From Negativicutes bacterium (GTDB lineage Bacteria; Bacillota; Negativicutes; UBA1444), in NCBI GenBank assembly GCA_963665275.2, contig CAXXIN010000016.1, positions 96,001-160,000 of the forward strand: 64,000 nucleotides of DNA, given 5' to 3'. Shown here piece by piece: positions 6,052 to 35,640 of this stretch. The position numbers and the translations under genes were made by a program. How positions within the stretch are numbered: the first letter of the stretch is position 1; each line of letters starts with the position of its first letter. The notes under the pieces are model-generated. The model was given only the letters and a program-made list of their open reading frames with translations. It made no database searches and had not been told where the DNA came from.

Positions 6052-6070
6052 GAATGTGTAACCAGATATG

Positions 6071-6238: not shown

Positions 6239-6271
6239 GTCGTGCATAGATCAGATCCGTATGCATGCGAA

Positions 6272-17573: not shown

Positions 17574-17630
17574 TTCCTTATCTCCCATCGTAATTTGATT
17601 TTGGACGGGATGACCGCAGGTTGTCGACTT

Positions 17631-18308
17631 CTATTTTCCGAACCGGGCATCCCATTCCGCGAGCAGCGCCTCACCCGCACTGACGCCGATTCGGTTGGCT
17701 CCGGCTTCCAACATGGACAGGGCTTGATCCAGAGTTCGAATGCCACCGGAAGCTTTGACTCCCATGGTAGGACCGACTGTTTCGCGCATGAGCTTGATAT
17801 CAATCGGGTCAGCGCCCCTGGCAGCAAATCCGGTTGATGTTTTGACGAATTGGGCTCCGGCCTGTTGAACCAGCTGACAGGCGATAACAATTTCGTCTTT
17901 TGACAGTTCGCAGGTTTCCAGAATGACTTTGACGGGTGCTCCAGCGGCAGCGGTTACGACAGCTTCGATATCCTGCACGACAGCGGCGTGCTCGCCAGCC
18001 TTGAAAGCACCCAAGTCCATCACCATATCGAGTTCATCGGCGCCGATTGAACGTAGCCTGTCAGCGGAGAATGCTTTGACTTCGGTCAAGTCGGCTCCAT
18101 GGGGAAAACCAAGAACCGCACCGACGAGTACACCGGAGCCGGTCAGTTCGCTTACAGCCAATGCTGTGTGACGCGGCTGCACCATCAGAAGTTTGAACGC
18201 GTTTTCACTGGCGCTGCGGCATCCGGTGAGAATATCAGCCTCCGTCGCAGTCGGTTTTAGGATTGAAAAATCAAAGGTTTGAGCGAATTCAGCTCGTGTC
18301 ATCATCAT
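17631..18308 (-). CDS. deoC: Deoxyribose-phosphate aldolase
   Basis: GFPHG, ADELDMV, VKVILET, FVKTSTGF, VKASGGIR; SD AAAGGA before ATG 18308. Confidence 0.9.
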   Translation of the reverse strand: MMMTRAEFAQTFDFSILKPTATEADILTGCRSASENAFKLLMVQPRHTALAVSELTGSGVLVGAVLGFPHGADLTEVKAFSADRLRSIGADELDMVMDLGAFKAGEHAAVVQDIEAVVTAAAGAPVKVILETCELSKDEIVIACQLVQQAGAQFVKTSTGFAARGADPIDIKLMRETVGPTMGVKASGGIRTLDQALSMLEAGANRIGVSAGEALLAEWDARFGK

Positions 18309-18351
18309 TGTTCGTCCTTTCTTTTCTTTCAGATCATTGTCTGTGCAGGAA

Positions 18352-19434
18352 TCAAGTGGGCAACGCAACAGCATCTGCCGGGGAAATGATTAGTTTGACG
18401 TGGTCCCCTTCATTATATAAAATCATGCCGACCATATATGGTTCTTCTGCATGGATAACCGTTCCATCGGGCAACGCAGCTTCATACTCTATGCGGTCGC
18501 CTACGAAAGTTCGTAGACGTACCACGGCCGTCAGGCCGAGTGCGTCCAAGGTGCCCAAACGCAGACTTTCGGGGCGGACAATCAAAGAGACAGCGGTATC
18601 TGGTATGTAAGAGCGACCTTGTAGGGCCCGCACCTGGTAAGCTTGATCATAGCAGGCTACTTCGAGTTTGCCTGAGCTGGCGTTTCCGACCGTTCCACGC
18701 AGCACGTTGGCCTGGCCGATGAAGTCGGCCACAAACAGGGTTGTGGGGTTGGCATAAAGCTCAAAAGGAGTATCTACCTGCTCGATTCGGCCCTTGTGCA
18801 TGACGACGATACGGTCCGCCAACGTTAGCGCTTCTTTTTGATCATGGGTGACATAGAGGCAAGTCAGTCCCAGTTTTTTCTGGATGCGTCGGATTTCCGT
18901 CCGCATGTGGATGCGCAGTTTGGCATCCAGATTCGAAAGGGGCTCGTCCATGAGGAGGACCTGCGGTTCGAGCGCCAACACTCTGGCGAGAGCAACGCGC
19001 TGCTGTTCACCACCGGAAAGTTGGTTGGGGTAACGACCTTCAACCTTCGGCAGACCAACTAGCTCCAAGCTCTCTCTAACTTTGTTTTGCAGTCCTTCAC
19101 CAGACTGTTTGCGGGCCCGCAGACCATAGGCGACATTATCGAAAATCGTCATATGGGGAAATAAGGCGTAGTTTTGAAAGACAAAACCAATATCGCGTTT
19201 GTTGACCTGTATATTGGTTACATCACGCCCATCAAACAGGATGCGTCCTGATGAAGGAGTTTCGAACCCGGCGATCATGCGTAGTGTCGTGGTTTTGCCG
19301 CAGCCGGAAGGGCCGAGAAAGGTCACCAGTTCTCCTTGATTAATGGTGAGGTGGACATCATCCACCGCCCGGAATTCATTATTGTCCTTGGTGAACGTTT
19401 TAGTCAGGTGCTCAAGGGAAATACTTACTGCCAT
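18352..19434 (-). CDS. ABC transporter ATP-binding protein (PotA/FbpC family)
   Basis: GPSGCGKT, LSGGEQQR, DEPLSNLD, TOBE domain. Confidence 0.93.
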   Translation of the reverse strand: MAVSISLEHLTKTFTKDNNEFRAVDDVHLTINQGELVTFLGPSGCGKTTTLRMIAGFETPSSGRILFDGRDVTNIQVNKRDIGFVFQNYALFPHMTIFDNVAYGLRARKQSGEGLQNKVRESLELVGLPKVEGRYPNQLSGGEQQRVALARVLALEPQVLLMDEPLSNLDAKLRIHMRTEIRRIQKKLGLTCLYVTHDQKEALTLADRIVVMHKGRIEQVDTPFELYANPTTLFVADFIGQANVLRGTVGNASSGKLEVACYDQAYQVRALQGRSYIPDTAVSLIVRPESLRLGTLDALGLTAVVRLRTFVGDRIEYEAALPDGTVIHAEEPYMVGMILYNEGDHVKLIISPADAVALPT

Positions 19435-19446
19435 GAACAGTCCTCC

Positions 19447-21084
19447 TTAACGGGAATAGCGCGGGTACGCCAGTCGGAAAGCAAGGGTGATGAAGCCGCT
19501 GGCGACAAAGACAATCAGAATCAAAATGACCGAGAAGGCTGAGGCCTGAGCGAACTGCATTTCTGTCATACATTCGAGAATGCGGGTGGTTAATAGGGAC
19601 CAGTGCACAGAAACCAAAAAAATGGTGGCGCTGATTGCGGTCATTGCACGAATGAACAGGAATTTCATTCCAGCAGTCACGGCAGGGATGATAAGCGGCA
19701 GAGTAACCTTGCGGAAAGTGCCGAAGGCCGTTTCGCCAAGCGACAGAGAAGCTTCCTCCAGGGAAGGATCAAGTTGTTGCAGTGAAGCGACGGTGGAGCG
19801 GATACCGGTTGCATCATAGCGAAAAACATAAGCCGATACGATAATGGCCATGGTGCCGGTAAGCACAATCGGTCCGGTATTGAACGCGATAACATAAGAA
19901 ATGCCGACGACGGTTCCCGGCAAGGCGTAATTCAGCATGGACGCAAATTCCATGAAGCGCGAACCGGGAAATTTCATGCGGGAAGTCAGGTATCCGAAGG
20001 CTGTACCGAGGATTGCTCCAAGCGGCGTAACGACGCAGGCAATGACGAAGGTATCCTCGATCGCTTTCAGGCCGCGGGTGAATACGTAATTGTAATGGTC
20101 AAAAGTGAGTGTGTTATTGACACCCCAAACTTTGACCAGCGAACCGAGAAAGATGATCGCGTACAGAAAAAGGATAAAAGCGGAGACAAAAGCGCAAACA
20201 GCCAGAACGAATGCCTCGGGGCCTGTGCCGAGAGTTCTGATGCCGCTGCGCGGACCGGCTTTGCCGGTTATCGTGACGTAGCTCTTTTGGCCGACCCAGT
20301 AACGCTGGAGAAAATAGACGATCAGAGCCGGGATGAGCAGGATAAAGGACAGGGACGCGCCGCCGCGAAGATCGTGCAGACCGGTTATCTGCAGGTAAGC
20401 CTGGGTCGGTAGTACCGGAAAGGAGTGGCCGGCCAACACGAGCGGGGTGGCGAAATCGGCCAGTGAACTGGCAAACAGGAGCAGGAAGGCATTGGCCAGG
20501 CCGGGAGTCGTCAAAGGCAACGTCACGGAGAAGAAGGTGCCAAGACGCGACTTGCCGAGACTCAGCGAGGCATCTTCCAGATTGGGATCAATTGCGGCCA
20601 GGATGGCAGATAGCGTGAGAAAAGCCACCGGGAAAACAGTCAGCGTTTCCGACAGCCAAGTGCCCCAGAAGCCGTAAATATTAAACTGAGGCAGTCCCAA
20701 CCAGCGAAAGAGCATGCCATTAGGTCCCAAAGCCAAAGTAATGGCGATACTACTTGTGAAGGGTGGAGAGATGAGCGGCAGGATCGGCACGGCACTGAGA
20801 AACCATTTGACTGGCCGCGGCAGACTCATCCGGGTGACGGCAAAGGCAAAAATGAAGCCCAGCAGTACCCCGGCGAGGGATACTGCCAGCGCTAAATAAA
20901 GACTATTGAATACGGCAGCCCGATCGTACCAGTTCGTGAAAACACGCATCAAACTGGCCAGGCTGAAGTACCCGTCGGCGAAAAACGTGACCTGAAGTAA
21001 TCGGACAAACGGATAGAGCACGAATACGCCGAGCGAAAGCCATAAAGCGGTGATGGCCGCGATGAGGGCAGGATCACGTCTCAT
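19447..21084 (-). CDS. ABC transporter permease (FbpB/AfuB type, two EAA loops)
   Basis: DPNLEDASLSLG and DPSLEEASLSLG loops; about 12 TM. Confidence 0.92.
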   Translation of the reverse strand: MRRDPALIAAITALWLSLGVFVLYPFVRLLQVTFFADGYFSLASLMRVFTNWYDRAAVFNSLYLALAVSLAGVLLGFIFAFAVTRMSLPRPVKWFLSAVPILPLISPPFTSSIAITLALGPNGMLFRWLGLPQFNIYGFWGTWLSETLTVFPVAFLTLSAILAAIDPNLEDASLSLGKSRLGTFFSVTLPLTTPGLANAFLLLFASSLADFATPLVLAGHSFPVLPTQAYLQITGLHDLRGGASLSFILLIPALIVYFLQRYWVGQKSYVTITGKAGPRSGIRTLGTGPEAFVLAVCAFVSAFILFLYAIIFLGSLVKVWGVNNTLTFDHYNYVFTRGLKAIEDTFVIACVVTPLGAILGTAFGYLTSRMKFPGSRFMEFASMLNYALPGTVVGISYVIAFNTGPIVLTGTMAIIVSAYVFRYDATGIRSTVASLQQLDPSLEEASLSLGETAFGTFRKVTLPLIIPAVTAGMKFLFIRAMTAISATIFLVSVHWSLLTTRILECMTEMQFAQASAFSVILILIVFVASGFITLAFRLAYPRYSR

Positions 21085-22130
21085 TTGATTACTTCGTTGA
21101 TCCAGCGATCAACCAGATGCTGCCGGTCTTTACCGGCTTTTAGAATGTCAACTTCGACGAATTTGACTTTGGACATGTCAAGTGCCGGATCAGTGACTTT
21201 CACATCAGGGTTGGTCGGGATGAAGAAGATCTTATTGGTTTCATATAGTTTCTGCATGTCGGCCGTCGAGGCCCAATCAAGGAACTTTTTCGCCAATTCG
21301 GGTTGCTTGGCGCCCTTGATCATCGCCATCGCTTCCACGGCATAAGCGACTCCCTCCTTGGGATAACTGACGACAACATCATACCCTTGCGCTTTGGTTT
21401 CCAGCGAATCTACCAGAAAGAAAATTCCGCCGACTGCCTGACCGTTGGCGATGGGCAACGTTCCGCCGCCGCCGCTTTTGGTATACATCTGCACGTTTTG
21501 ATGCAGCTTCTTTTGGTAGTCATAGGCTTTGTCTTCACCCATTACGTAAGTCAGACTGAGGATGCGAGAGATCGCGGTCCCGGACGTGCGGGCATCCGCG
21601 GTCTGCAGACCATTCTTAAAGGCGGGATTTAGCAGTTCATCCCAGGAAGTGGGCGCTGGAATATTTTTTTCCTTGAGAAACTTGTTGTTGAACATGAAAC
21701 TGATTGGATCAACAGCGACACCAACCCAGAAATTTTTGGGATCCTTGAATTTTGCCGGGATCTTGTCGGCACTCTTGGGTGCATATGCCTCAAAAACCCC
21801 TTGCTCCACGCCGGCAGCGAAGGTGTCCGCCGGACCGCCAAAAAGCACATCGACCTGCGGGTTGCCTTTTTCCGCCACGATGCGGGCTAATGCTTCACCA
21901 GAGGAGAAGCGGAGAAAATTGACCTTGATGCCGGTTTCTTTGGTGAATGCGGCAAATACCGCGGAAGAGTATTTTTCCGGCCAGATTGTATAAATGTTGA
22001 TTGTTTCGGCTTTGGCCGGAGCAGCAGATTTGTCGGCGGGTTTGGATTCGCCGCCGCCGCACCCGGTGATCAACAGTGCAACCAGAGAAAAGATCAATAC
22101 TAGAATCAGGTGTTTTTTGATTGATGTCAT
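21081..22130 (-). CDS. ABC substrate-binding lipoprotein (AfuA-like variant)
   Basis: Lipobox ITGC; RFSSGE, FGGPAD, RTSGTA. Confidence 0.9.
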   Translation of the reverse strand: MTSIKKHLILVLIFSLVALLITGCGGGESKPADKSAAPAKAETINIYTIWPEKYSSAVFAAFTKETGIKVNFLRFSSGEALARIVAEKGNPQVDVLFGGPADTFAAGVEQGVFEAYAPKSADKIPAKFKDPKNFWVGVAVDPISFMFNNKFLKEKNIPAPTSWDELLNPAFKNGLQTADARTSGTAISRILSLTYVMGEDKAYDYQKKLHQNVQMYTKSGGGGTLPIANGQAVGGIFFLVDSLETKAQGYDVVVSYPKEGVAYAVEAMAMIKGAKQPELAKKFLDWASTADMQKLYETNKIFFIPTNPDVKVTDPALDMSKVKFVEVDILKAGKDRQHLVDRWINEVIK

Positions 22131-22167
22131 ACGCGTATCCCCCTTTATTTAATTTACATGTTGTAAG

Positions 22168-23220
22168 CTATTTCTCCATGACGGTTTTCCGAAAAGTTTC
22201 TTTCACGGATTCCGCTTCTTTGGCGAACTTGGCCCAGTCGAGCATGGGCGAGTTCTTGGTTATGACCGCTTTGTCGGGAGCTCCCTGGGGCGGCGGGACA
22301 TCATCCCGTACGGAATGCATCCAGCCTTTGGTAACGATGGCCTGCTGACCGTCTTTGGAAAGCCACCAGTCAGTCACTGCTTTGGCTGCTTCGGGATTTT
22401 GCGTACTGGTAAAAATGGCAATCGGGCTGGGCAATATTACCGCTCCGTCAGTTGGATAGGCAACTTTCAACGGTTCGCCCTTGGCGGAAACCTTGAGAAT
22501 GTTTTCTTCACCAATGATGCCGACAAAATATTCACCGGTGATGAGCTTGTTTTGGACAGCGGTGTTACCGCCTTCGATTTTAAGACCGTTGGCCTTGAGT
22601 GCTTTAAAATAATCCCATCCATAGCGCTGGGAAAGATCGGCCGCGACTGTGAGGATGGACCCCGATAGCAGCGGATTAGCCATGGAAAGTTTGTCTTTCC
22701 ATTTGGGATCTGTTAAATCCTTAAAGGTTTTGGGGGCTTCTTCCGGTTTAACTTTGGTTGTATTGTAAGCTATCAGCATGTAACTGAGGCGGACGCCGGT
22801 CCAGTAGCCTTCCGTGTCTTTATATTTTTCACCGACGAATTTGCGGTTGGGAGCGTCAAATTTCAGCAGTAGATTCTTTTCTTTGAGCGTGATGTAGTAA
22901 CCAGGGTCGGAAACCATGAGTACATCGGCCTGGATCTTTTTCGCTTCAATTTCTCCGGCCAGTTTGGTCATGACTTGTTCGGATCCCGCTTGAAACCATT
23001 GAACATCGAGATTGGGAAACGCTTTCTTCAGTTCAGGTTTGACGGCTTCGATGATATCCGGGAACATTGAAGTGTAAATCATCAGTTTACCTGAAGGGCC
23101 GGCTGGTTTGGCAGGTTCTGCCGCTTTTTTGACATCGCCGCCACAGCCTGCGGACAATGCGGTGAAAAGGACGAGAATGAGGAGTGCGGCAGTCAGTTTG
23201 GCTTTTTTCATAAGATTCAT
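22168..23220 (-). CDS. ABC substrate-binding lipoprotein (AfuA/FbpA family)
   Basis: Lipobox SAGC; paralog of 13675 and 29061 proteins. Confidence 0.9.
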   Translation of the reverse strand: MNLMKKAKLTAALLILVLFTALSAGCGGDVKKAAEPAKPAGPSGKLMIYTSMFPDIIEAVKPELKKAFPNLDVQWFQAGSEQVMTKLAGEIEAKKIQADVLMVSDPGYYITLKEKNLLLKFDAPNRKFVGEKYKDTEGYWTGVRLSYMLIAYNTTKVKPEEAPKTFKDLTDPKWKDKLSMANPLLSGSILTVAADLSQRYGWDYFKALKANGLKIEGGNTAVQNKLITGEYFVGIIGEENILKVSAKGEPLKVAYPTDGAVILPSPIAIFTSTQNPEAAKAVTDWWLSKDGQQAIVTKGWMHSVRDDVPPPQGAPDKAVITKNSPMLDWAKFAKEAESVKETFRKTVMEK

Positions 23221-23265
23221 ACCCCCTTGTCTTAAAATGTGAAAAACTTATAGTGTTCGGGAAGG

Positions 23266-23338
23266 AAAATAAAACCGGGATATCTGTGCGGGTGTACCAC
23301 GACACAGACACCCCGGACTTCTCTAAATCTCTGTCCTG
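23266..23338 (-). promoter_or_regulatory. Leader attenuator copy A (antiterminator-like stem-loop overlapping a terminator)
   Basis: Minus strand: GGAC-AGAGATTTAGAGAA-GTCC overlapping CCGGGGTGTCTGTG...CACAGATATCCCGG-TTTTATTTT. Confidence 0.7.
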
Positions 23339-23408
23339 AAGATGTTTCGAATTTGCTCCATTTTAATTGACGAAGAAGTGTTAGCTGATTCTAATCCTGC
23401 CTTTGAGA

Positions 23409-24482
23409 CTATTTCACTATATGGAGCTTGTTCGGCGCAATGACCAGGAATACCTGCTCATCGGCAGCGAATGTTTCGTGATTCGCAGGATCAGGATCAA
23501 CGATAAGCAAGTTTTGTCCATGTGCTGAGATGATGTAATCCTGATAAGATCCCATAAAAACGGAAGAGGCAATTTTGGCCGGGATGCCTGCAGTTCGCGA
23601 GAGTACGACAGCTTCGGGGCGGACGATCAATTTCACGGAATCCCCGATTTTCAGAAGCAGCTCAGTTTTGACATAAAAACTGGTTCCGAGCGTTTCGACT
23701 TCGACTTCTCCGACTGTAGCTGTTTTCACTGTGCTGGGAATAATGTTGGCTGTGCCTATAAAATCCGCCACAAACTGACTGGATGGCGTGGCGTATATTT
23801 CTTTCGGTGTGCCCATTTGTTCGACCACACCTTTGTTCATGACGATGATGCGGTCCGACATGCTCATTGCTTCTGCTTGGTCATGGGTGACATAAATGCT
23901 GGTGATACCGAACTGGCGCTGGATTTTGCGAATTTCGCGCCGCATGTGAATGCGCAGTTTGGCGTCGAGGTTGGAGAGCGGTTCGTCGAACAGGAGCACC
24001 GAAGGCTCCATGACTAGCGCACGGGCCAGCGCGACACGCTGTTGTTGGCCGCCCGAGAGTTGGTTGGGCGAGCGGTTTTCCAAGTCGGCGAGTCCGACCA
24101 GACCGAGAAGTTCCGTAACTTTCACGCGAATGTCATCTGTTTTCATTTTTTTGATTTTTAATCCGTAAGCGACGTTTTCAAATACATTCAAATGCGGAAA
24201 TAGTGCATAGCTTTGGAAAACCATGGCCGTATCCCGCCGATCCGGCGTTAATGTATTGACCCGTACTCCACCGATGAGAACATCACCGCTGTTGGGGTTT
24301 TCAAAACCGGCTATCATCCGCAAAATAGTAGTTTTACCGCAGCCGGAAGGTCCCAGAAGAGTGACAAACTCACCGGGTTCAATGGTGAGGGAGACATTAT
24401 CGACGGCGGTTACTTTTTTGCCACCGGAACCTTCGAAAATTTTTACGAGCTTCTTTACACTGACATTTTTGGATGTTGACAA
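23409..24482 (-). CDS. ABC transporter ATP-binding protein (FbpC/AfuC type)
   Basis: Walker A GPSGCGKT, LSGGQQQR; SD AAGGAGG before TTG 24482. Confidence 0.92.
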   Translation of the reverse strand: MSTSKNVSVKKLVKIFEGSGGKKVTAVDNVSLTIEPGEFVTLLGPSGCGKTTILRMIAGFENPNSGDVLIGGVRVNTLTPDRRDTAMVFQSYALFPHLNVFENVAYGLKIKKMKTDDIRVKVTELLGLVGLADLENRSPNQLSGGQQQRVALARALVMEPSVLLFDEPLSNLDAKLRIHMRREIRKIQRQFGITSIYVTHDQAEAMSMSDRIIVMNKGVVEQMGTPKEIYATPSSQFVADFIGTANIIPSTVKTATVGEVEVETLGTSFYVKTELLLKIGDSVKLIVRPEAVVLSRTAGIPAKIASSVFMGSYQDYIISAHGQNLLIVDPDPANHETFAADEQVFLVIAPNKLHIVK

Positions 24483-24498
24483 ACCGATGGCCTCCTTA

Positions 24499-26178
24499 TC
24501 ACCCTTGAACGTCCGAAATTTTAACTCCCATGCGGCCGAGTAGCAATTTGAGAATACCTGTGACAATAAGAACGATGATGATCAACACGGTTGAGTAAGC
24601 CGCGGCCACCCCCAGCTTTCCGCCATCAACCTGGGACATGATGGATACAGTCAGTAGATTGTAACTGGCGGAAACCAGAAAAATAACCGCACTGACCGCA
24701 GTCATGCTGCGGACGAAACTGTACACCAAGCCGCTAAAAAAAGCCGCCTTGATCAGAGGGATCGTGACGGATGTGAATACTTTGAATGAACTTGCGCCCA
24801 AGTCTTGAGCCGCTTCTTCGATGGCCGGATCTATCTGCTGCAGCGAGGCGATACCGGCGCGAATTCCGACCGGCATGCTGCGAAAGACGAAGGAGAGCAC
24901 GATGATTGTCGCAGTTCCCGTCAAGACCAGAGGTTCCTTGTTATAGGCCAGCACATAGCCTACGCCAATGACGGTGCCGGGGATTGCCATAGAGAGCAGC
25001 GAAGTAAATTCGATAAGACCTCGTCCCATAAATTTCTTGCGAACGATCAGAAACGCGATGACCATACCGAGAATGCCGGTAATCGGCATAGAGACGAGGG
25101 CGAGCCAAGTAGTGTCAATGATAGGCTTGAGGCCGAGTTCCATAACATAGCGGTAATGTTTCAGCGTTGGAGTATAATCGATTCCCCAGAGATTCACCAG
25201 TGACCCGTAAGGAATCAAGGCATACAGGATAAGGATGAATAAGCTGACAAGCAGGCAGGGGATACCGACAAAAAATAACGGCAGAGGATCGGCGGTCAGT
25301 TCGCGTTCGCGCGAGGGTTTGCCGGTCACTGTCACATAAGACTTGTCACCGACCCAATATTTCTGCGCCACAAACATCAGTACGGAAACTGTGAGCAGAA
25401 CTGTGGCCAGTGCCGTGCCACCCTTCAAATCGTAATTTCCCATGGCCTGCATATAGATTTGCGCCGCCAGAGTCGTGTAATTGCCACCGATCACCATGGC
25501 ATTACCGAAGTCGGCCACGCTCTGGATGAATACCAGCAGAAAAGCATTGGCAATACCGGGGCGGACCAAAGGCAAAACAATGGTACGGAAGATGTGGCCG
25601 CGGGAGGCGCCCATATTACGGGCCGCTTCTTCATAGGACGGATCGATTTGCCTCAGCAGACCAGCCAATACCAGAAAGGCGACAGGAAAGAAGGTCAGCA
25701 CCTGGACGGTGGCGAGTCCCTCAAAGCCGTAAACATTGGTTTCCTTTAGACCCAGAATTGTCCGGGTCACAAAACCCTGCTGGCCGAACAGCATAATGAA
25801 TGACATCGAGAGCGCGAATGGCGGGGAAATGATCGGCAGAATAGCCAACGTATTGAAGAGGCTTTTGAACCGTATCTTCAGGAAAGCGTCAGCGTAGGCG
25901 AATAAGAACCCGACAAAAGTCGACACCGCGCTGACGAAAATCCCCAACCATACAGTATTGGCGAGTGTTTTCAGGTTATCCATCTTGCTGAGCGAGTCGC
26001 GGAAGTAATTGAGTGTAAAGGTTCCTTCATCCGTGAAGAACCCTTCCCACAATACCTCATAAAGCGGCCACAGGATAAATAAAACCAGAGAAGCCGCCAC
26101 GAGAATAATCGTGGCGGCAAGAATGGGATCACGTGTAATCATTCGTAGTTCATCGAGTTTACGACGGATAATATTCAC
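24499..26178 (-). CDS. ABC transporter permease (AfuB type)
   Basis: Two EAA loops (YEEAARNMGAS, IEEAAQDLGAS). Confidence 0.92.
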   Translation of the reverse strand: MNIIRRKLDELRMITRDPILAATIILVAASLVLFILWPLYEVLWEGFFTDEGTFTLNYFRDSLSKMDNLKTLANTVWLGIFVSAVSTFVGFLFAYADAFLKIRFKSLFNTLAILPIISPPFALSMSFIMLFGQQGFVTRTILGLKETNVYGFEGLATVQVLTFFPVAFLVLAGLLRQIDPSYEEAARNMGASRGHIFRTIVLPLVRPGIANAFLLVFIQSVADFGNAMVIGGNYTTLAAQIYMQAMGNYDLKGGTALATVLLTVSVLMFVAQKYWVGDKSYVTVTGKPSRERELTADPLPLFFVGIPCLLVSLFILILYALIPYGSLVNLWGIDYTPTLKHYRYVMELGLKPIIDTTWLALVSMPITGILGMVIAFLIVRKKFMGRGLIEFTSLLSMAIPGTVIGVGYVLAYNKEPLVLTGTATIIVLSFVFRSMPVGIRAGIASLQQIDPAIEEAAQDLGASSFKVFTSVTIPLIKAAFFSGLVYSFVRSMTAVSAVIFLVSASYNLLTVSIMSQVDGGKLGVAAAYSTVLIIIVLIVTGILKLLLGRMGVKISDVQG

Positions 26179-26191
26179 TTTTATAACCTAC

Positions 26192-27238
26192 TTACTTAAT
26201 CGCGTTGTTCCATTTTTCGACCAAGGCGCTGCGGTTTTTGCCGGCCCATTCGAGATTATATTCAATCAGTTTGGTGTTTTTAATCGGTTCAGCCTGTTTC
26301 GGCGGATTCGCGTCAGAATTGGTCAGGAATTGGTACGAGCCTACTGCCTGGCCGAATTCCTGGCCTTTTTTGGAAAGGGCCCAATCAACCCATTTTTTTG
26401 CGGCTTCTTGATCAGGGCCACCCTTGATGATCGCGACGGCGCCAATTTCATAGCCGGTGCCTTCAGAGGGTGCAGATAAGACAAGGTCTTTCATTCCTTC
26501 TTCCTGATACTTGATTGCATCATGCAGGAAAGTCAGGCCAACTGTAACTTCGCCTTGACCTGCCATACGCGCCGGTGCAGTGCCGGTTTTCTGATAAACT
26601 TTGATTTGGCCATTTAATTTCTTCATGTACTCCAGGCCTTTTTCCTCACCCATGAGCTGCACGATGGTTGCCAACATGGTATAAGCGGTGCCTGAGGCGC
26701 CGGGATTGGCCATCGATACTTGCCCTTTCAATTCCGGGCGAAGCAGATCCTGCCAGGATTGCGGCACAGGAATGCCTTTTTCCTTTAGTAGCTTTTCATT
26801 GGAGGAGAATCCGAGATAGCCAACATAGATGCCGGTCCAGAAGCCATCGGCGTCTTTGAATTTAGCCGGAATTTTCGCGGCATTGGGAGAGTCGTATTTT
26901 TCAAACAAACCGTCCTGTTTGGCAGCGATAAAGGCATCGGCAGGTCCTCCCCACCACACACTGGCTTTGGGATTGCTTTTCTCAGCTTTGATTCGACCGA
27001 GGATTTCGCCGGAGCTCATACGCACGGCTTCAACTTTGATGCCGGTATCTTTTTGAAACTCCTGGACCGCCTTTGCCATGTGATCTTCCATCAGGCCACA
27101 ATACAACGTAAGCTTAAGCGGTTTCGCTTCAGGCTTTGCGGGGGTACTGCCACCACAACCTGCCAGTGCAAGTGATGCAACAAATACAAACAGGACCAAC
27201 AGACTGGAAACCTTCAGGCTTTTGTGAGTCATCTTCAA
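26192..27238 (-). CDS. ABC substrate-binding lipoprotein, AfuA sugar-phosphate-binding type
   Basis: Lipobox LAGC; RMSSGE, WGGPAD, SGTAY, TFLHD and PSEGTGYEIG, which resemble the AfuA sugar-phosphate site as I recall it. Confidence 0.85.
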   Translation of the reverse strand: MKMTHKSLKVSSLLVLFVFVASLALAGCGGSTPAKPEAKPLKLTLYCGLMEDHMAKAVQEFQKDTGIKVEAVRMSSGEILGRIKAEKSNPKASVWWGGPADAFIAAKQDGLFEKYDSPNAAKIPAKFKDADGFWTGIYVGYLGFSSNEKLLKEKGIPVPQSWQDLLRPELKGQVSMANPGASGTAYTMLATIVQLMGEEKGLEYMKKLNGQIKVYQKTGTAPARMAGQGEVTVGLTFLHDAIKYQEEGMKDLVLSAPSEGTGYEIGAVAIIKGGPDQEAAKKWVDWALSKKGQEFGQAVGSYQFLTNSDANPPKQAEPIKNTKLIEYNLEWAGKNRSALVEKWNNAIK

Positions 27239-27285
27239 ACCTCCCCAGTTTTCTCCTTTATTACTTGGCGGCTACGTCGCGGCAG

Positions 27286-27353
27286 AAAAAAACCGGGAGC
27301 TTGCGTAATGCAACGCAAGCATCCCGGGAATTTCTCTTAATCTCTCTTCCCTG
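27286..27353 (-). promoter_or_regulatory. Leader attenuator copy B
   Basis: Minus strand: GGGAA-GAGAGATTAAGAGAAA-TTCCC overlapping CCGGGATGCTTGCGT...ACGCAAGCTCCCGG-TTTTTTT. Confidence 0.75.
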
Positions 27354-27398
27354 CAAATGCGATATTCTAAGTAACTATCATACCTTATATCCAGCATT

Positions 27399-27428
27399 AG
27401 TATAGCGCTGTCTGGGGCGGTTCGTCAA
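27399..27428 (-). promoter_or_regulatory. Sigma-A promoter (leftward)
   Basis: TTGACG-18-TATACT on the minus strand. Confidence 0.55.
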
Positions 27429-27443
27429 TCACAAATCCCGTAA

Positions 27444-27472
27444 TTGACGGCTTGGCGAATCCAAGTTATAAT
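27444..27472 (+). promoter_or_regulatory. Sigma-A promoter (rightward, phoU operon)
   Basis: TTGACG-17-TATAAT. Confidence 0.7.
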
Positions 27473-27513
27473 AATTTTAATATTTAGATATGCATCATTT
27501 TTTAGGCAGCTTT

Positions 27514-27585
27514 GGGAAAAGAGAGCAAGAGAAATTCCCGGTATGTTGGTGGCTTTTTGTCGCCCGTCCGGGGTTTTGTGTTTTT
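27514..27585 (+). promoter_or_regulatory. Leader attenuator copy C
   Basis: GGGAA-AAGAGAGCAAGAGAAA-TTCCC overlapping CCCGGTATG..GGTGGC..GTCGCC.CGTCCGGGG-TTTTGTGTTTTT. Confidence 0.72.
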
Positions 27586-27623
27586 GGCAAGATATAGGAT
27601 TCGGGAAAGAAAGGGTGGCGGAA

Positions 27624-28295
27624 ATGGAACGAAAAATGTACTCGGAAGAGCTGGCGGGCATCAAGCAGTTGACCCTTGACATGGGGCAGAAGACCGTTGA
27701 TGCTGTAAAGTTTTCCGCGCAAGCTCTTATATCGAACGATCAGGATGCGGCGGTTCGCGCCCGAAATTTGGAAAAAGAAGTGGACGACATTTATCGGCAA
27801 GTTGATGACCGTTGCATCATTAGCATCGCAACACAACAACCCATGGCGGGAGACCTGCGATTTTTGGTTTCAACGCTCAAGATCGCCACAGAAATTGAAA
27901 GAATTGCTGATTATGCCAATAATATTGCAAAAATGGTGCAAAAGAAGTTTGCCCAGGAAGATATGTCGCCGATTGAGTCCATGAAACCGGCAGTGGATAT
28001 CATGGCCAGGGAAGCTGTCAGTATGCTGGAGGAAGCACTGGAGGCCTACCGCAAAAATGATCCTGAAATGGCGATTTTGGTTCCAAAACGCGATGCACTG
28101 GTGAACCGGTTGAATAAAGACTTGTTCCGCAACATTCTGGCCATGGCAACGGTGAAACAGTATGCGAACGAACTGGCAATGGATTTTCACACCACAGTGC
28201 GCTATATCGAGCGTGTGGCAGACCGGTCAGGCAATGTTGCCGAATATGTTTATTATGCAGCTACCGGATACCGATTCCCCGACAATAAAAAATAA
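27624..28295 (+). CDS. phoU: Phosphate signalling complex protein PhoU
   Basis: QQPMAGDLR, EIERIADYANNIA, RYIERVADR..NVAE. Confidence 0.92.
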   Translation: MERKMYSEELAGIKQLTLDMGQKTVDAVKFSAQALISNDQDAAVRARNLEKEVDDIYRQVDDRCIISIATQQPMAGDLRFLVSTLKIATEIERIADYANNIAKMVQKKFAQEDMSPIESMKPAVDIMAREAVSMLEEALEAYRKNDPEMAILVPKRDALVNRLNKDLFRNILAMATVKQYANELAMDFHTTVRYIERVADRSGNVAEYVYYAATGYRFPDNKK

Positions 28296-28330
28296 CCGAC
28301 GCAGCTTCAGGTGGAAAGGGGGCGCGTATT

Positions 28331-28993
28331 TTGCCGGCAGAGCTGATTGAAATCATACGATTGATAGCGGCTGCGTTTTTGGGCGGGGTCATCGGACTTG
28401 AAAGGCAACAGCGGCACAAGTCGGCTGGACTGCGGACCCATATCTTGGTTTGCCTGGGTTCCTGTCTCGTGATGCTGATCTCCTATAAGATCTATTCGGA
28501 GGTTCAGGGCCTGACCAACGCCGACCCTGCCCGTCTGGCGGCCCAAGTCGTTAGCGGCATCGGTTTTCTTGGCGCAGGCACCATCATGAAAGAAGGCTTG
28601 ACCATCAAAGGACTGACTACGGCGGCCAGCTTGTGGGTCGTCGCCGGAGTCGGTCTGGCGGTAGGGGCGGGATATTATATCGGGGCTGTTACCACCACTG
28701 TTTTGTCGGTGCTCGCGCTTACCTATTTGCCGCGTTTTGAACGACTGTATGGGTGCGGGCCTTCTCAGGTGGCACTTATCGTTCACTCGGTGGACAAACC
28801 GGGTCAGATTGGCAGGGTCGGATCATATCTGGGAACCAAAAATGTTGCGATTTGCGATATAAAAATTGATGAAGTCGGAAAAAACGACATTCATATTTCT
28901 GTGATTGTTGATGTTACCGATCGTCGTATCGTGCCTGAAATTATTGATGGATTAAAAGGAATCGAAGGAGTTATTGACGTCCAACCGGAATGA
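28331..28993 (+). CDS. MgtC/SapB family protein with C-terminal ACT-like domain
   Basis: IGLERQ..KSAGLRTH, DPARLAAQVVSGIGFLGAG, GLTTAASLW. Confidence 0.92.
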   Translation: MPAELIEIIRLIAAAFLGGVIGLERQQRHKSAGLRTHILVCLGSCLVMLISYKIYSEVQGLTNADPARLAAQVVSGIGFLGAGTIMKEGLTIKGLTTAASLWVVAGVGLAVGAGYYIGAVTTTVLSVLALTYLPRFERLYGCGPSQVALIVHSVDKPGQIGRVGSYLGTKNVAICDIKIDEVGKNDIHISVIVDVTDRRIVPEIIDGLKGIEGVIDVQPE

Positions 28994-29060
28994 TAAACGG
29001 CAAGTCGATAGTCCTGGATGAATGAATCCAATACAATAGATGAAAGGATGGGGTAATGGG

Positions 29061-30098
29061 ATGAAGAAATCAATGGTTTTCCTGGTACTGGTCATGTTCG
29101 TCGTCGCGGCGATGGTGGCTGGCTGTGGCGGGGGAGACAAAAAACCTGCCGAACAACCCAAAGCGAAAGGCCCTTCCGGCACGTTAATGATTTACACCTC
29201 GATCTATCCGGATATTGTCGAGCTGGTCAAACCGGCTATCGCCAAAAAGTTTCCTGATTTAAAGGTAAGCTGGTTCCAGGCGGGATCGGAACAAGTCATG
29301 GCCAAGCTGGCCGGTGAAATTGAAGCGAAAAAAGTGCAGGCAGACGTACTGCTGGTAGCCGATCCGGCGTATTATCTGACGCTCAAGGATAAAGGGCTGC
29401 TACTGAAATATGACTCGCCGATGCGAAAAGACATCACAGGGAATAAAGATACGGAAGGCTATTGGACCGGCGTCCGAATTAATGCTATCGTGATGGCGTA
29501 CAACACCAAAAAAGTTAAACCGGAAGAAGCGCCGAAAACGTGGCAGGATTTAACGGATCCGAAATGGAAAAACCGCATTGCGATGGCGAATCCCTTGTTG
29601 TCCGGGACCGCCTACGTCGGTGTGGGTGCATTGGTACAGAAATACGGCTGGGAATATTTTGATAAACTCAAAGCCAATGGCGTGAAGGTTGAATCTGGCA
29701 ACACCGCGTTGCAGAATAAACTGGTTCAGGGCGAATATGATGTGGTCATAATTTTGGAAGAGAATATTCTCAAGATGGCGGACAAAGGCGAGCCGGTTAA
29801 GGTAGCCTATCCGACGGATGGTGTCGCTATCAACCCCAGCCCAATCGCTATCTTCGGCAGCTCGCAGAACCCCGAAGCTGCAAAAGCATTGACTGACTGG
29901 TGGCTCTCAAAAGAAGGTCAGGAAATGGTCGTGAAAGGCTGGATGCATTCGGTACGGGATGATGTTTCCTCGCCCAAGGGAGCGCCGGCATTGAAGACAC
30001 TCATGCCTACGGCATTGAAGATCGATTGGGATCAGCTTGCCAAAGAAAACGAAAAGTTTAAGGAAAACTTCCGGTCACGAGTGTTGGAAAAGAAATAA
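29061..30098 (+). CDS. ABC substrate-binding lipoprotein (AfuA/FbpA family)
   Basis: Lipobox VAGC; paralog of 13675 and 22168 proteins. Confidence 0.9.
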   Translation: MKKSMVFLVLVMFVVAAMVAGCGGGDKKPAEQPKAKGPSGTLMIYTSIYPDIVELVKPAIAKKFPDLKVSWFQAGSEQVMAKLAGEIEAKKVQADVLLVADPAYYLTLKDKGLLLKYDSPMRKDITGNKDTEGYWTGVRINAIVMAYNTKKVKPEEAPKTWQDLTDPKWKNRIAMANPLLSGTAYVGVGALVQKYGWEYFDKLKANGVKVESGNTALQNKLVQGEYDVVIILEENILKMADKGEPVKVAYPTDGVAINPSPIAIFGSSQNPEAAKALTDWWLSKEGQEMVVKGWMHSVRDDVSSPKGAPALKTLMPTALKIDWDQLAKENEKFKENFRSRVLEKK

Positions 30099-30105
30099 TC
30101 CAGCG

Positions 30106-30133
30106 AAGGTGGGGGGCAACTCCCCCCCACCTT
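30106..30133 (+). other. Intercistronic hairpin after the binding-protein gene
   Basis: AAGGTGGGGGG-CAACTC-CCCCCCACCTT; typical mRNA stabiliser or partial terminator between SBP and permease. Confidence 0.55.
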
Positions 30134-30163
30134 ATATAATGCCAGCTAAACAGGGGGTATATC

Positions 30164-31846
30164 GTGGGAAAAAAATGGCTCCCCCAGTGGGACACCAAGT
30201 GGATGGTAATTATTTCGGCAGTAGCTGCATTGGTCCTGTTTGTCGTGTTGCCCATGCTTTATCTGGTCTACAAGAGCTTCATCATCAATGGAAGCTTTGA
30301 CGTCCATCATTATCAGACGGTGTACAGTAATATCGTCAATTGGAATGCCTTGAGCAATACGCTTCAAATTTCTTTATATTCCACCGTGTTGGCGGTGCTG
30401 ATCTCTTTTCCGCTGGCCTGGATGATCGGGCGGACTGATTTGCCGGGCAAGGGGTTCTTTCGGACTCTGTTTGTGGCAACTTACATGATTCCACCCTATG
30501 TTGGGGCTATTGCCTGGATTCAGTTGTTGAATCCAAGAGTCGGGTACGTGAACAAGTTTCTGGTTGAAAGTCTGCATCTGGCCGAAGCCCCCTTCAACAT
30601 CTACTCAATGACGGGTATGGTCTGGTGTCTGACCTTGTTTTATGCGCCTTTTGCTTTTATTACTATTTCCCGGGCAATGGAAAAAATGGACCCGACCCTG
30701 GAAGAAGCCTCCCGGATATCTGGCGCATCGCCGCTGCGGACACTCTGGAATGTAACGATTCCTCTGATGTATCCCAGTATTCTGGCTGGGGGAGTACTCG
30801 TTTTCATCGGTGTGGCTTCGGCCTTCGGAACGCCATCCATCATCGGTATGCCAGCCAATATTGAAGTTCTGACGACCCGAATTGTCACATATATATACAT
30901 GGGTGACACCAAAGGGATTCAGGAAGCGACTGCACTGGCGGTTTCCCTGATGTTGGCAGCCAATGGGCTACTGTATTTCTCCATGTTCGGTCTGGGGAAA
31001 AAAGAATATGTGACCATAGGCGGGAAAAGCACCCGGCCCAACTTGGTCGAACTGGGAAGCTGGAAATGGCCGGCTTTCGGTATCGTGCTTGGTTATGGCG
31101 CTATCTCGGTATTCCTGCCGATTGGTTCTGTGTTAGTGACTTCTTTGATCAAATCAATGTCGCGGCCCATCACACTGGATAATCTTACGATATCAACATG
31201 GGTGGCTGCACTGAAGAATGAGCAATACACCGAACCTCTTTGGAACAGTTTCGTTTTAGCGATTACTGCGGCAACGGTTGCTACTATCATCGGAATTTTC
31301 GTCGCTTACCTCTTGATCAAGACAAGGGTCAAGGGACGGGAGATCCCGGATGCATTGGCTACCCTCGGCGGCGCCACTCCCGGCATCGTAATAGCGTTGG
31401 CGCTGATCATTACTTTTTCGGGTTCCTTTGGCCTGAATTTGTATTCAACGATGACGATCCTGGTTATCGGATATGTTGTCAAATACCTGACGATGTCTGT
31501 TCGGACAATATCCGCATCGCTCAGTCAGGTTCACCCTTCGCTGGAAGAGGCGGCGCTCAACTCCGGGGCAACCTGGTTACAGTCGCTGAAAGACATCATG
31601 TGGCCGCTGATCCGTCCGTCCATCGTCGCCGGCTGGTTTTTGGTCTTTATGCCGTCGTTTTATGAATTGACGATGTCCATTATCCTCTACGGATCCCAGA
31701 CGAAGACCATCGGCGTGTTACTGTATGAACTCCAAACCTATGCCGACCCACAAGACGCATCGGTATTGGCTGTTATAATTCTTTTGATCGTTCTGCTGGG
31801 CAATCTTGCACTTCGCAAGGTTTCGCGCGGCCAGATCGGCATTTGA
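30164..31846 (+). CDS. ABC transporter permease (FbpB type)
   Basis: LEEASRISGAS and LEEAALNSGAT loops. Confidence 0.92.
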   Translation: MGKKWLPQWDTKWMVIISAVAALVLFVVLPMLYLVYKSFIINGSFDVHHYQTVYSNIVNWNALSNTLQISLYSTVLAVLISFPLAWMIGRTDLPGKGFFRTLFVATYMIPPYVGAIAWIQLLNPRVGYVNKFLVESLHLAEAPFNIYSMTGMVWCLTLFYAPFAFITISRAMEKMDPTLEEASRISGASPLRTLWNVTIPLMYPSILAGGVLVFIGVASAFGTPSIIGMPANIEVLTTRIVTYIYMGDTKGIQEATALAVSLMLAANGLLYFSMFGLGKKEYVTIGGKSTRPNLVELGSWKWPAFGIVLGYGAISVFLPIGSVLVTSLIKSMSRPITLDNLTISTWVAALKNEQYTEPLWNSFVLAITAATVATIIGIFVAYLLIKTRVKGREIPDALATLGGATPGIVIALALIITFSGSFGLNLYSTMTILVIGYVVKYLTMSVRTISASLSQVHPSLEEAALNSGATWLQSLKDIMWPLIRPSIVAGWFLVFMPSFYELTMSIILYGSQTKTIGVLLYELQTYADPQDASVLAVIILLIVLLGNLALRKVSRGQIGI

Positions 31847-31865
31847 CCTGAAAGGAGCCGGGATT

Positions 31866-32909
31866 GTGGCAGATGTAAAAATCAGTTCGGTGACCAAAAA
31901 ATTCGGTGATGTTTATGCCGTAAACCATTTTGATGCGCTCATTCGCGATGGAGAGTTCGTGTCAATTCTGGGTCCGTCGGGATGCGGAAAAACCACAATG
32001 CTTCGCATGATTGCGGGGTTTGAGAAAGCAACCGAAGGTGAAATTTCGATTGGCGACCAGATCGTGAGCCAGGCAGGAAGCGGTATATTTGTACCGCCAG
32101 AAAAACGGCATATCGGAATGGTGTTCCAATCTTACGCGGTATGGCCGCACATGAACGTATTTGACAATGTGGCATACCCCCTGAAAATCCAAAAAGTTCC
32201 GGCAGAGAAGCTGAAAGAGCGTACCCTTAAGGCGCTGGAACTAGTGCACCTAGAGGAATATGCGGCGCGCTTTCCGAACCAACTATCCGGCGGACAGCAA
32301 CAGCGTGTGGCGTTGGCACGGGCGCTCGTCGCAGAGCCGGGTTTGCTGCTGCTGGATGAACCGCTATCGAATCTGGACGCCAAACTGCGTGAAAGTATGC
32401 GGTTTGAAATTAAAGAACTTCAGAAGAAACTGGGCATCACCGTCATCTATGTAACTCACGACCAGGCAGAGGCGATGGCGATGTCAGATCGAATCATCGT
32501 AATGTACAAGGGTGTCATCCAGCAGGTAGATGTACCCATGCGTATTTACGAACATCCTGCTAATCCAACCGTGGCAGACTTTATCGGGCTGGTCAATTTC
32601 CTGGAAGGCGATGCGGAACCCGGGTTTGTTCATTTTAAGACACTGGACTGCTCCTTGCCTGCTGATGTTTCATTCACCGGTCCGGCTCGTGTGGCTGTCC
32701 GACCGGAGCATATCACAATGTCGAAAACCCAGGGCGCATTGCGCGGGAAATTACTGCACAAAATATATCTAGGAGACTCGACCGATTGGCGGGTAGCGGT
32801 CGGAGAAAACGTACTGCGGGTCATTGACCGGGGTTCGAGTTTCGTCGAATATGCTGCCGGTGATGATGTTTTGCTGAGCTTCGATCATGTGATGATTTTT
32901 CCCAAATGA
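31866..32909 (+). CDS. ABC transporter ATP-binding protein
   Basis: GPSGCGKT, LSGGQQQR; SD AAAGGAG before GTG 31866. Confidence 0.92.
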   Translation: MADVKISSVTKKFGDVYAVNHFDALIRDGEFVSILGPSGCGKTTMLRMIAGFEKATEGEISIGDQIVSQAGSGIFVPPEKRHIGMVFQSYAVWPHMNVFDNVAYPLKIQKVPAEKLKERTLKALELVHLEEYAARFPNQLSGGQQQRVALARALVAEPGLLLLDEPLSNLDAKLRESMRFEIKELQKKLGITVIYVTHDQAEAMAMSDRIIVMYKGVIQQVDVPMRIYEHPANPTVADFIGLVNFLEGDAEPGFVHFKTLDCSLPADVSFTGPARVAVRPEHITMSKTQGALRGKLLHKIYLGDSTDWRVAVGENVLRVIDRGSSFVEYAAGDDVLLSFDHVMIFPK

Positions 32910-35637: not shown

Positions 35638-35640
35638 CGC

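Follow-up and report, generated by a model that had tools for sequence, protein, structure and literature searches.

Genes at the locus

The locus lies in a 64-kb window (the whole stretch of DNA that was analyzed, to which all coordinates refer) of a 3,972,404-base (3.97-Mb) host genome and contains three gene sets, each behind its own leader, here designated A, B, and C (Table 1). Analysis with Pfam and NCBIfam recovered the gene content listed in a first-pass annotation of this DNA: ABC importers, deoC, phoA, phoU, mgtC, and a HAD phosphatase gene. Judged by sequence, the transporters are three AfuA-like organophosphate ABC importers with putative substrates. The nearest NCBIfam model for all four binding proteins was PhnS2, with scores far under the cut-off (109 to 237 bits versus 392.75). 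Among solved chains, the sequences nearest to the leader-B binding protein were 8x1a_B (245 bits), 4r72_A (239 bits), and 6wce_A (192 bits), the latter two representing the AfuABC-type transporters (4r72 to 4r75) and P5PA (6wce), a pyridoxal-5-phosphate binding protein. We take 4r72 to 4r75 to be sugar-phosphate-binding AfuA; the PDB title of this family is just "Fe3+ transport system component." The deoC assignment was above the NCBIfam equivalog cut-off (231 versus 117 bits). The MgtC of operon C is the only one in the host genome, and another PhoU is encoded on contig C1, adjoining a PstB-like ATPase.

Table 1. Coordinates of genes and leader features in the window
Feature	Position	Strand	Basis or details
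Genes behind leader A	15921-23220	-	Pfam
Binding proteins	23220-22168; 22130-21081	-
Permease	21084-19447	-
ATPase	19434-18352	-
deoC	18374-17631	-
Alkaline phosphatase (phoA)	17588-15921	-
Operon behind leader B	23409-27238	-	Pfam; NCBIfam PhnS2/U2/T2-like, below cut-offs
AfuA-like binding protein	27238-26192	-
Fused double permease	26178-24499	-
ATPase with TOBE domain	24566-23409	-
Operon behind leader C	27624-33715	+	Pfam, NCBIfam
PhoU paralogue	27624-28295	+
MgtC-ACT	28331-28993	+
Binding protein	29040-30098	+
Permease	30164-31846	+
ATPase	31806-32909	+
HAD-IIA phosphatase	32906-33715	+
Leader A, exact motif	23319-23332	-	AGAGANNNAGAGAA
Leader A, boxes	23332-23328; 23324-23319	-	Sequence; AGAGA, spacer UUU, AGAGA(A)
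Leader A, predicted antiterminator hairpin	23308-23344	-	Predicted fold, -6.8 to -7.4 kcal/mol; flanks of boxes (sequence) 5' CAUCUUCAGGAC, 3' GUCCGGGGUGU
Leader A, intrinsic terminator	23266-23316	-	Hairpin 23316-23275, U-tract 23274-23266; fold -29.5 kcal/mol
Leader B, exact motif	27332-27345	-	AGAGANNNAGAGAA
Leader B, predicted antiterminator hairpin	27321-27357	-	GGGAA(G) AGAGA UUA AGAGA(A) (A)UUCCC, then GGGAU; P1 -4.0 to -5.7 kcal/mol
Leader B, intrinsic terminator	27286-27327	-	Hairpin 27327-27293, U7 27292-27286; fold -26.0 kcal/mol
Leader C, exact motif	27520-27533	+	AGAGANNNAGAGAA
Leader C, predicted antiterminator hairpin	27508-27544	+	UUGGGAA(A) AGAGA GCA AGAGA(A) (A)UUCCCGG; P1 -5.2 kcal/mol
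Leader C, intrinsic terminator	27537-27585	+	Hairpin 27537-27572, U-rich tail to 27585; fold -22.3 kcal/mol
Promoter-like site, operon B	27399-27428	-	TTGACG-18-TATACT; 10/12 positions, consensus match only
Promoter-like site, operon C	27444-27472	+	TTGACG-17-TATAAT; 11/12 positions, consensus match only

Anatomy of the leaders

The three copies of AGAGA-N3-AGAGAA that had been claimed for the leaders were exact matches, and a genome-wide motif scan found no others in the host genome. When up to one mismatch was allowed, the window contained 3 matches per 64 kb compared to a shuffle mean of 0.64, and at least three matches occurred in 0 of 100 shuffles. In a relaxed scan of the whole genome the only intergenic sense-strand matches were leaders A, B, and C and the leader between glpP and glpA. 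Each element in the window is on the sense strand, with a promoter-like site upstream and a terminator downstream. The closing stems, GGAC/GUCC in A and GGGAA/UUCCC in B and C, and the spacers UUU, UUA, and GCA were as first described.

Downstream of its promoter and ahead of its first gene, each leader has an intrinsic terminator with a U-tract (-22.3 to -29.5 kcal/mol), and the 3' side of the two-GAGA-box hairpin, in which the boxes are 3 to 5 nt apart, lies in the 5' arm of that terminator. In leader A, for example, the terminator 5' arm CCGGGGUG is common to the 3' side of the hairpin, and the whole leader folds with a z score of -4.5. The predicted antiterminator hairpins are weak, about -4 to -7 kcal/mol, compared to -22 to -30 kcal/mol for the predicted folds of the terminators that they overlap. 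The overlap described in the first-pass annotation is thus present, but its extent was greater than the CC(C) noted then: when the hairpins were extended by allowing G-U pairs and one mismatch, they shared 5 to 8 nt with the terminator 5' arm. The promoters proposed ahead of B and C correspond to near-consensus sigma-70-type sites, and leader A, which is located between two gene sets, has only a weak promoter-like site.

The conserved core of the element is the loop of 13 to 15 nt on a weak stem of 3 to 7 bp. Single hairpin stems were barely above chance, as all 25 beat the mean of shuffled 5' flanks but just 6 of the 25 did so at ≤0.05. The stem flanks are complementary in the glpA leader as well as in A, B, and C, despite differing in sequence from one leader to another. 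Compensatory changes were present in the terminator B stem in two relatives (G011 and G001).

Association with glpP in the host genome and its family

A profile search identified a single glpP in the host genome (PF04309; 164.4 bits; E value, 3.5e-48), on contig C19 rather than the contig of the window. The first-pass annotation was therefore correct that there is no glp gene in the window, as the glp locus is on a different contig of the same genome, and the search for glpP paralogs that it proposed yielded this one PF04309 match. Downstream of glpP are glpA, glpB, and glpC, followed by ugp-like genes, and the intergenic leader between glpP and glpABC-ugp has AGAGA-AUG-AGAGA and a terminator whose 5' arm, GUCCUGAC, doubles as the 3' arm of the hairpin. 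The genome that encodes a PF04309 protein thus has the same element heading bona fide glycerol/glycerol-3-phosphate genes, with boxes identical to those of A, B, and C. No other candidate regulators were found with Pfam within the locus in the window.

One PF04309 match was found in each of the 8 family genomes searched. The glpP-adjacent leader was kept in 8/8 family relatives, with fixed boxes and a variable spacer. Leader A was at the syntenic site in 6/6 relatives and leader C in all 8 examined, with spacers of 3 to 5 nt. Leader B was present in 5 of the 10 family genomes with readable sequence and missing in the other 5. Outside the host family, none of 19 transporter orthologues had the element. 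Control of phoU, mgtC, and phoA by such leaders had been expected to be unusual, and among the sampled genomes it was found in the host family only.

The element beside glpP in other lineages

A two-GAGA-box hairpin overlapping a terminator was located less than 1.5 kb from glpP at 17 of 30 loci from the class, and this arrangement was also found beside glpP at 10 of 30 loci from the phylum. The phylum loci gave 13 passes in 0.20 Mb, versus a background of 13 passes in 7.94 Mb when the identical filter was applied to the host genome. Glycerol genes accounted for 16 of the 18 open reading frames scanned downstream of the canonical hairpin (13 MIP [GlpF-type], 1 DAO, 1 Dak1, 1 GlpP, and 2 NusG-like overall). 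In another family there is an independent glpP-mgtC-phosphoesterase gene string.

The widespread stem is GGACU/AGUCC, from which the GGGAA/UUCCC stems of B and C deviate; these could bind poorly if GlpP reads the stem besides the loop. A covariance model (R1) of 17 glpP-adjacent hairpins from other genera, which was too short (33 positions) and had a sequence-specific stem, placed A (13.4 bits; E value, 0.37) and B (12.4 bits; E value, 0.75) as the top two of 81.5 kb, neither of them significant. That search reported neither leader C nor the leader of glpA, and the whole-genome run of this model missed all four leaders. There is no Rfam family for the two-GAGA-box hairpin: Rfam 15 had zero matches in the window at the gathering score, and at an E value of ≤10 positions 22900 to 27900 gave two chance-level matches only, one with a microRNA model and the other with a snoRNA model.

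Proposed mechanism and alternatives

The RNA anatomy, the conservation, and the association with glpP and glycerol genes that were observed suggest that leaders A to C are probably GlpP-type antitermination leaders that would coregulate glpABC-ugp and the three phosphate-ester operons. Transcription would start at a strong promoter (B and C) or from a weak promoter supplemented by read-through (A). By default, RNA polymerase would stop at the intrinsic terminator, since the upstream hairpin that competes with this terminator is much less stable. We infer that GlpP loaded with its ligand, which in Bacillus subtilis is glycerol-3-phosphate, would bind both GAGA boxes of the hairpin loop in leaders A to C and keep the hairpin closed; with the base of the terminator stem thereby sequestered on its 5' side, read-through would be permitted. 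One GlpP signal for glpABC-ugp would therefore also turn on the three importers, deoC, phoA, the HAD phosphatase, the second PhoU, and MgtC. The first-pass suggestion of a common antitermination regulon that depends on a protein or ligand is supported by the single GlpP and by the same hairpin and terminator ahead of glpABC-ugp.

The same antiterminator architecture might respond to a different effector, either because GlpP in this lineage senses another phosphate ester, for which candidates are sugar phosphates, products of glycerophosphodiesters, and phosphate status, or because a second RNA-binding protein reads the B/C-type hairpins. The genes behind the leaders are AfuA-like importers, phoA, deoC, a HAD phosphatase, phoU, and mgtC rather than genes for glycerol uptake or catabolism, a difference that concerns the regulon rather than the mechanism, and the sensed ligand may therefore differ from glycerol-3-phosphate. 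In addition to the noncanonical stems of B and C, other genomes have 2 to 4 GlpP paralogues each, which suggests ligand diversification within the GlpP family. However, the single PF04309 match in the host and in every family genome searched, the identity of the boxes to those of the glpP-adjacent leader, and the locus without another candidate regulator make a different effector improbable.

It is considerably less likely that the element is a small protein-free riboswitch, in which the purine loop would bind a metabolite or ion directly and thereby stabilize the hairpin. Judged by inspection of the sequence, tandem G-A pairs could form in the loop, and the lack of a matching Rfam family places the element outside the catalogued classes. 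Against this, little beyond the loop is conserved, the spacer is free in both sequence and length, the element accompanies a GlpP-family gene from Escherichia coli to Bacillota, and the literature consulted describes GlpP as overcoming the glpD terminator. Least likely of all are ordinary terminators with a chance purine run upstream or a direct-repeat DNA operator for a transcription factor. In favor of these readings, the boxes are direct repeats near promoters, and purine runs upstream are able to base-pair with U-tracts, which they do in the predicted minimum-energy structures of A and B. Against them, the copies exceed the shuffles and are confined to these leaders, are invariably in the transcribed orientation with a promoter and a terminator on either side, have complementary flanks of differing sequence, and are kept across phyla beside the gene for an RNA-binding antiterminator.

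Implications

The proposed GlpP-type antitermination at this locus is a known switch type in a new use, a lineage-specific expansion of the regulon onto operons for the import and cleavage of phosphate esters. We lean toward the broader view that in the uncultured host family leader duplication recruited the GlpP antiterminator as a master switch that governs the scavenging of organophosphates along with phosphate/magnesium balance, and that the hairpin represents a widespread protein-binding RNA class with a regulon well beyond glycerol. If so, one metabolite signal would coinduce three importers of the sugar-phosphate type together with phosphatases, MgtC, and a dedicated PhoU paralogue, and the GlpP switch would bypass or supplement PhoR/PhoB control. 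The two-GAGA-box class would span E. coli to Bacillota while being absent from Rfam. Placement of the second PhoU and the only MgtC behind a GlpP-type leader might tie phosphate-ester sensing to phosphate/magnesium balance during organophosphate uptake; the gene string in the other family points in the same direction.

In the accounts consulted, the RNA target of GlpP was termed only "inverted repeats" or "binding site." The locus and the related leaders provide a working consensus, two GAGA boxes separated by 3 to 5 nt within the loop of a weak terminator-competing hairpin, which is useful as an annotation rule for leaders of this kind, and they suggest that a GlpP-type switch can be copied onto nonglycerol operons.

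Comparison with known systems

The leader logic resembles that of RAT/BglG-LicT, the ANTAR targets (EutV, AmiR, and NasR), HutP, and PyrR, in which protein binding or a protein-stabilized structure blocks a terminator. The ANTAR target consists of two tandem hexaloop hairpins, the second of which overlaps the terminator, and was rejected because the window leaders have one hairpin with a loop of 13 to 15 nt; the one ANTAR protein of the host genome is encoded away from this locus. RAT is an imperfect hairpin of ∼29 nt, HutP recognizes UAG triplets, and PyrR a loop containing CAGAGAGG, features that the single two-GAGA-box loop does not fit.

GlpP of B. subtilis, the textbook antiterminator of family PF04309, mediates glycerol-3-phosphate-dependent antitermination at the glpD, glpFK, and glpTQ leaders. 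The window leaders share with these a promoter, a two-GAGA-box hairpin in the 5' untranslated region overlapping an intrinsic terminator, a PF04309 gene, and a glp operon with the element. The first-pass annotation had pointed to the GlpP leader as the closest known analogue, which agrees with the association with glpP across families and classes, and had foreseen that a match to GlpP sites would remove the novelty of the motif but leave that of the regulon; the glpD 5' untranslated region does match, reading GGUCC-UGAGA-UGA-GGAGA-GACC into the terminator (Table S4 of PMC9604022). The boxes are UGAGA/GGAGA in glpD compared to AGAGA/AGAGA in the window, the second glpD box is inside the terminator arm whereas in the window just the 3' stem overlaps (≤8 nt), and the B. 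subtilis genes serve glycerol uptake and catabolism rather than organophosphate import and the accompanying functions.

The leaders of ygcW and yqcE in E. coli each have a two-box hairpin and a terminator in a gene cluster that includes the GlpP-like ygcP. This divergent pair, AGAGA-CC-UGAGA and AGAGA-UAAU-GAGA running into terminators, mirrors the divergent leaders B and C of the window but belongs to another phylum. The E. coli spacers are shorter, the cargo is of a sugar type, and the GlpP paralogue is a different one, whose gene is within the cluster, whereas the regulator gene of the host genome is on another contig.

Anatomy of the importer leaders

Leaders A, B and C, each a weak hairpin with two GAGA boxes in its loop that overlaps an intrinsic terminator, stand before three operons for AfuA-like organophosphate importers. 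The first-pass annotation had described three copies of AGAGA-N3-AGAGAA, their stems and spacers, and a CCGG at the start of each subsequent hairpin, all of which were borne out when the sequence was read. With up to one mismatch, the motif had three matches in the 64 kb compared to a shuffle mean of 0.64 (three were reached by 0/100 shuffles), and the pattern matched leaders A, B and C only in the whole genome (3,972,404 bases). The same annotation had the hairpin overlapping the terminator by 2 to 3 nt; the overlap exists, but this extent was too small, as 5 to 8 nt of the terminator 5′ arm are shared when G-U pairs and one mismatch are permitted in the hairpin extension (in leader A, for example, CAUCUU..GGAC / GUCC GGGGUG). 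The promoters proposed for leaders C and B correspond to near-consensus promoter-like sites (11/12 and 10/12 consensus positions, respectively), and the site of leader A has 9/12 positions only and lies partly within the end of the preceding gene.

Positions of the leaders and of other features in the window, the own genome and related genomes. Fold energies are predicted, in kcal/mol.
Feature	Position	Strand	Description
Motif of leader A	window 23319-23332	-	Stem GGAC/GUCC, spacer UUU; hairpin -6.8, terminator with U-tract -29.5; whole-leader z-score -4.5. Behind it: two binding proteins, permease, ATPase, deoC (231 bits, cut-off 117), alkaline phosphatase
Motif of leader B	window 27332-27345	-	Stem GGGAA/UUCCC, spacer UUA; hairpin -5.5, terminator with U-tract -26.0; z-score -5.3. 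Behind it: binding protein, fused double permease, ATPase
Motif of leader C	window 27520-27533	+	Stem GGGAA/UUCCC, spacer GCA; hairpin -5.2, terminator with U-tract -22.3; z-score -2.0. Behind it: PhoU (152.8 bits, cut-off 130.25), MgtC-ACT, third importer, HAD-IIA phosphatase
M-box (magnesium) riboswitch aptamer	window 6069-6241	+	Rfam RF00380, 152.8 bits; same window as the mgtC behind leader C
TRAP transporter (DctP, DctQ, DctM)	window 33848-36684	-	Adjoins the downstream end of the HAD phosphatase gene; runs convergently with operon C
tRNA gene	window 57747-57832	+	Rfam, 59.3 bits
tRNA gene	window 57880-57967	+	Rfam, 57.9 bits
Mutator-family transposase	own-genome contig C1, locus L131, 278-1504	+	Adjoins two response regulators, KdpD-like kinase genes and a pstB-phoU pair
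Fourth same-type importer	relatives G009 and G002 (loci L098, ~4844-9761; L100, ~5578-10250)		Between two binding-protein genes behind leader A; 34-50% identity to the other importers
NusG-like paralogue	locus L110, 501-1025	+	Not a glycerol gene; behind canonical hairpin and terminator; record titled Pelosinus
NusG-like paralogue	locus L119, 544-1116	-	As for L110
Two-box site	locus L023, ~1501-1523		Close behind a GntP-family permease stop codon; next come a terminator and a SIS+CBS (KpsF-like) gene
glpP-mgtC-phosphoesterase locus	locus L053, 779-1447 and 1-663	-	Another family of the class

Because spacer lengths differ, box 1 was mis-registered in a MAFFT alignment of 25 family leaders, and pair counts were therefore replaced by constrained folding of each sequence, with shuffled 5′ flanks as the comparison. 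All 25 stems beat the shuffle mean, with values of ≤0.05 against shuffled flanks in 6/25 only. No Rfam 15 family matched at gathering score, and only two chance-level matches appeared at E ≤ 10. A covariance model trained on 17 hairpins from other genera, too short to discriminate firmly, gave leaders A and B weak scores of 13.4 and 12.4 bits in a filter-free run (leader C and the leader of glpA were not among the matches listed), and on the whole genome it gave two unrelated 15-bit matches only. Readings of the purine loop in terms of TRAP, HutP, PyrR, CsrA, Hfq (ARN) or a K-turn were set aside on sequence grounds only.

The importers are nearest to PhnS2/T2/U2 in NCBIfam, with scores far under the cut-offs. 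By sequence, the PDB chains nearest to the first binding protein, encoded behind leader B, were 8x1a_B (245 bits) and 4r72_A (239 bits); the pyridoxal-5-phosphate binding protein 6wce_A scored 192 bits. Entries 4r72 to 4r75, whose titles are silent on the matter, we take to be sugar-phosphate-bound AfuA. The sole mgtC of the genome is in the window, and a second PhoU gene on another contig adjoins genes for a PstB-like ATPase and a histidine kinase.

A fourth leader between glpP and glpA

The genome has a single GlpP-family gene (PF04309, 164 bits), and directly downstream are glpA, glpB, glpC and genes for ugp-like permeases and a binding protein. The 118-nt stretch between glpP and glpA contains ...GGAGUCUU AGAGA AUG AGAGA UAGUCCUGAC... 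followed by a terminator, whose 3′ arm GUCGGGAC pairs with GUCCUGAC, the same segment as in the hairpin region. The sole reason that the exact pattern failed to match this leader is that its last base is U. The leader was present in 8/8 family relatives fetched, with fixed boxes and varying spacers (UUG, UGA, UUU, UAG, UGG and others); one relative, G004, has the variant AGAG-UUUU-AGAGA.

With the pattern relaxed, the whole genome held 430 regex matches, and filtering for a hairpin and a terminator left 10 distinct sites. Candidates at C13:33583 (antisense within a 799-aa open reading frame) and C5:42117 (on the 3′ end of a gene) were ruled out. Because only leaders A, B and C and the leader of glpA were intergenic and on the sense strand among these sites, the predicted GlpP regulon of this genome is four leaders served by one GlpP.

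The two-box hairpin beside glpP in other lineages

GlpP was found in 62/121 genomes of a class-level sample, and 17 of the 30 class loci fetched have, no more than 1.5 kb from glpP, a hairpin of the form GGRCU-AGAG(A)-N3-10-AGAGA-(A/U)GUCC that runs into a terminator. Leader A (GGAC AGAGAUUUAGAGA AGUCC) differs from the commonest class form by the deletion of one U and a different spacer. A scan for the canonical form, with one genome per species, gave 22 stretches, mostly in records titled Pelosinus, Sporomusaceae or Negativicutes. Pfam assigned the downstream open reading frames (n = 18) to 13 MIP channels, one DAO, one Dak1, one GlpP and two NusG-like proteins; three stretches without a terminator from other phyla (L115, L117 and L128) had been left out, as had the L124 frame, a duplicate of that in L123, and L130 had no open reading frame.

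At the phylum level, GlpP occurred in 34/101 genomes, and 10/30 glpP loci had a two-box hairpin overlapping a terminator (13 passes in 0.20 Mb), for example, GGAC GGAGA UGU GGAGA AAGUCC and GGUUC AGAGA UGA AGAGA GGACC. Applied to 7.94 Mb of the own genome, the same filter passed 17 sites, of which four are the true leaders. In Escherichia coli K-12, sequence reading located the two-box hairpins of both the ygcW and the yqcE leader, with terminators, in an intergenic region of the cluster that encodes the GlpP-like YgcP.

Exact-pattern searches in the family, order and class returned the true family copies; the remainder were mostly chance matches in coding regions, together with one conserved site in another genus. 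Three genomes from a different genus in the class (L022, L023 and L024) keep AGAGA-N3-AGAGAA in an invariant frame, with spacers CGU, UUU and UGU. The genus has two GlpP paralogues, and this site may be either a GlpP attenuator between genes or a chance occurrence. In locus L053, glpP is followed within ~50 nt by mgtC (141 bits) and then by a gene for a calcineurin-like phosphoesterase, and L062 has the same layout. This is a second, independent link of GlpP to MgtC and phosphoesterase genes.

Distribution of the importer leaders

The synteny of the divergent first-binding-protein and phoU-mgtC locus is kept in relatives. Leader C was found in 8/8 relatives examined, with spacers of 3 to 5 nt, and leader A in 6/6. 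Leader B is present in the own genome and in relatives G001, G004, G009 and G011 and absent from G002, G003, G006, G007 and G012; in these five genomes the promoter leads directly into the ribosome-binding site. In G004 (locus L065, upstream of the first-binding-protein orthologue), the boxes AGAGA-UUUU-AGAGAA and the terminator stem are kept, and the degraded U-tract is replaced by GGGAAUUUAUAUAU; the attenuator there is possibly in decay.

Orthologues of the first binding protein outside the family (63-78% identity) have a patchy distribution. At 19 such loci, 180 nt or more could be read upstream, and none of them had the two-box motif, a count that leaves out L076 (16 nt upstream only) and the family locus L073, which starts at a contig end. 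Because the motif was not found at these loci, the GlpP-type leader on the importers looks like a family-specific acquisition, probably through leader duplication. At two of the non-family loci (L074 and L075), the importer is preceded by a gene that has a LuxR-type helix-turn-helix at its end, which suggests two-component control instead of antitermination in those lineages.

Proposed mechanism and comparison with known systems

By default, the terminator would win over the upstream hairpin on energy. Ligand-bound GlpP would clamp the two GAGA boxes and stabilise the weak hairpin, which would then withhold the base of the terminator stem and permit read-through. The boxes are invariant and the spacers and stems variable, a pattern that fits a protein recognising two short repeats that a hairpin displays in single-stranded form.

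A literature search, with key older GlpP papers that may define the site outside its reach, found no stated GlpP RNA consensus and no report of GlpP controlling phoU, mgtC, phoA or Afu-type transporters; PMC2965389 mentions neither glp nor phosphate. As listed in Table S4 of the PMC9604022 supplement, the 5′ untranslated region of Bacillus subtilis glpD reads GGUCC UGAGA UGA GGAGA GACC and runs on into a terminator, and the glpF and glpT leaders are described in PMC10573289 as having similar inverted repeats and Term-seq terminators. The antitermination mechanism and the GlpP protein family are already known; the new elements are the cargo and the leaders' family-specific spread.
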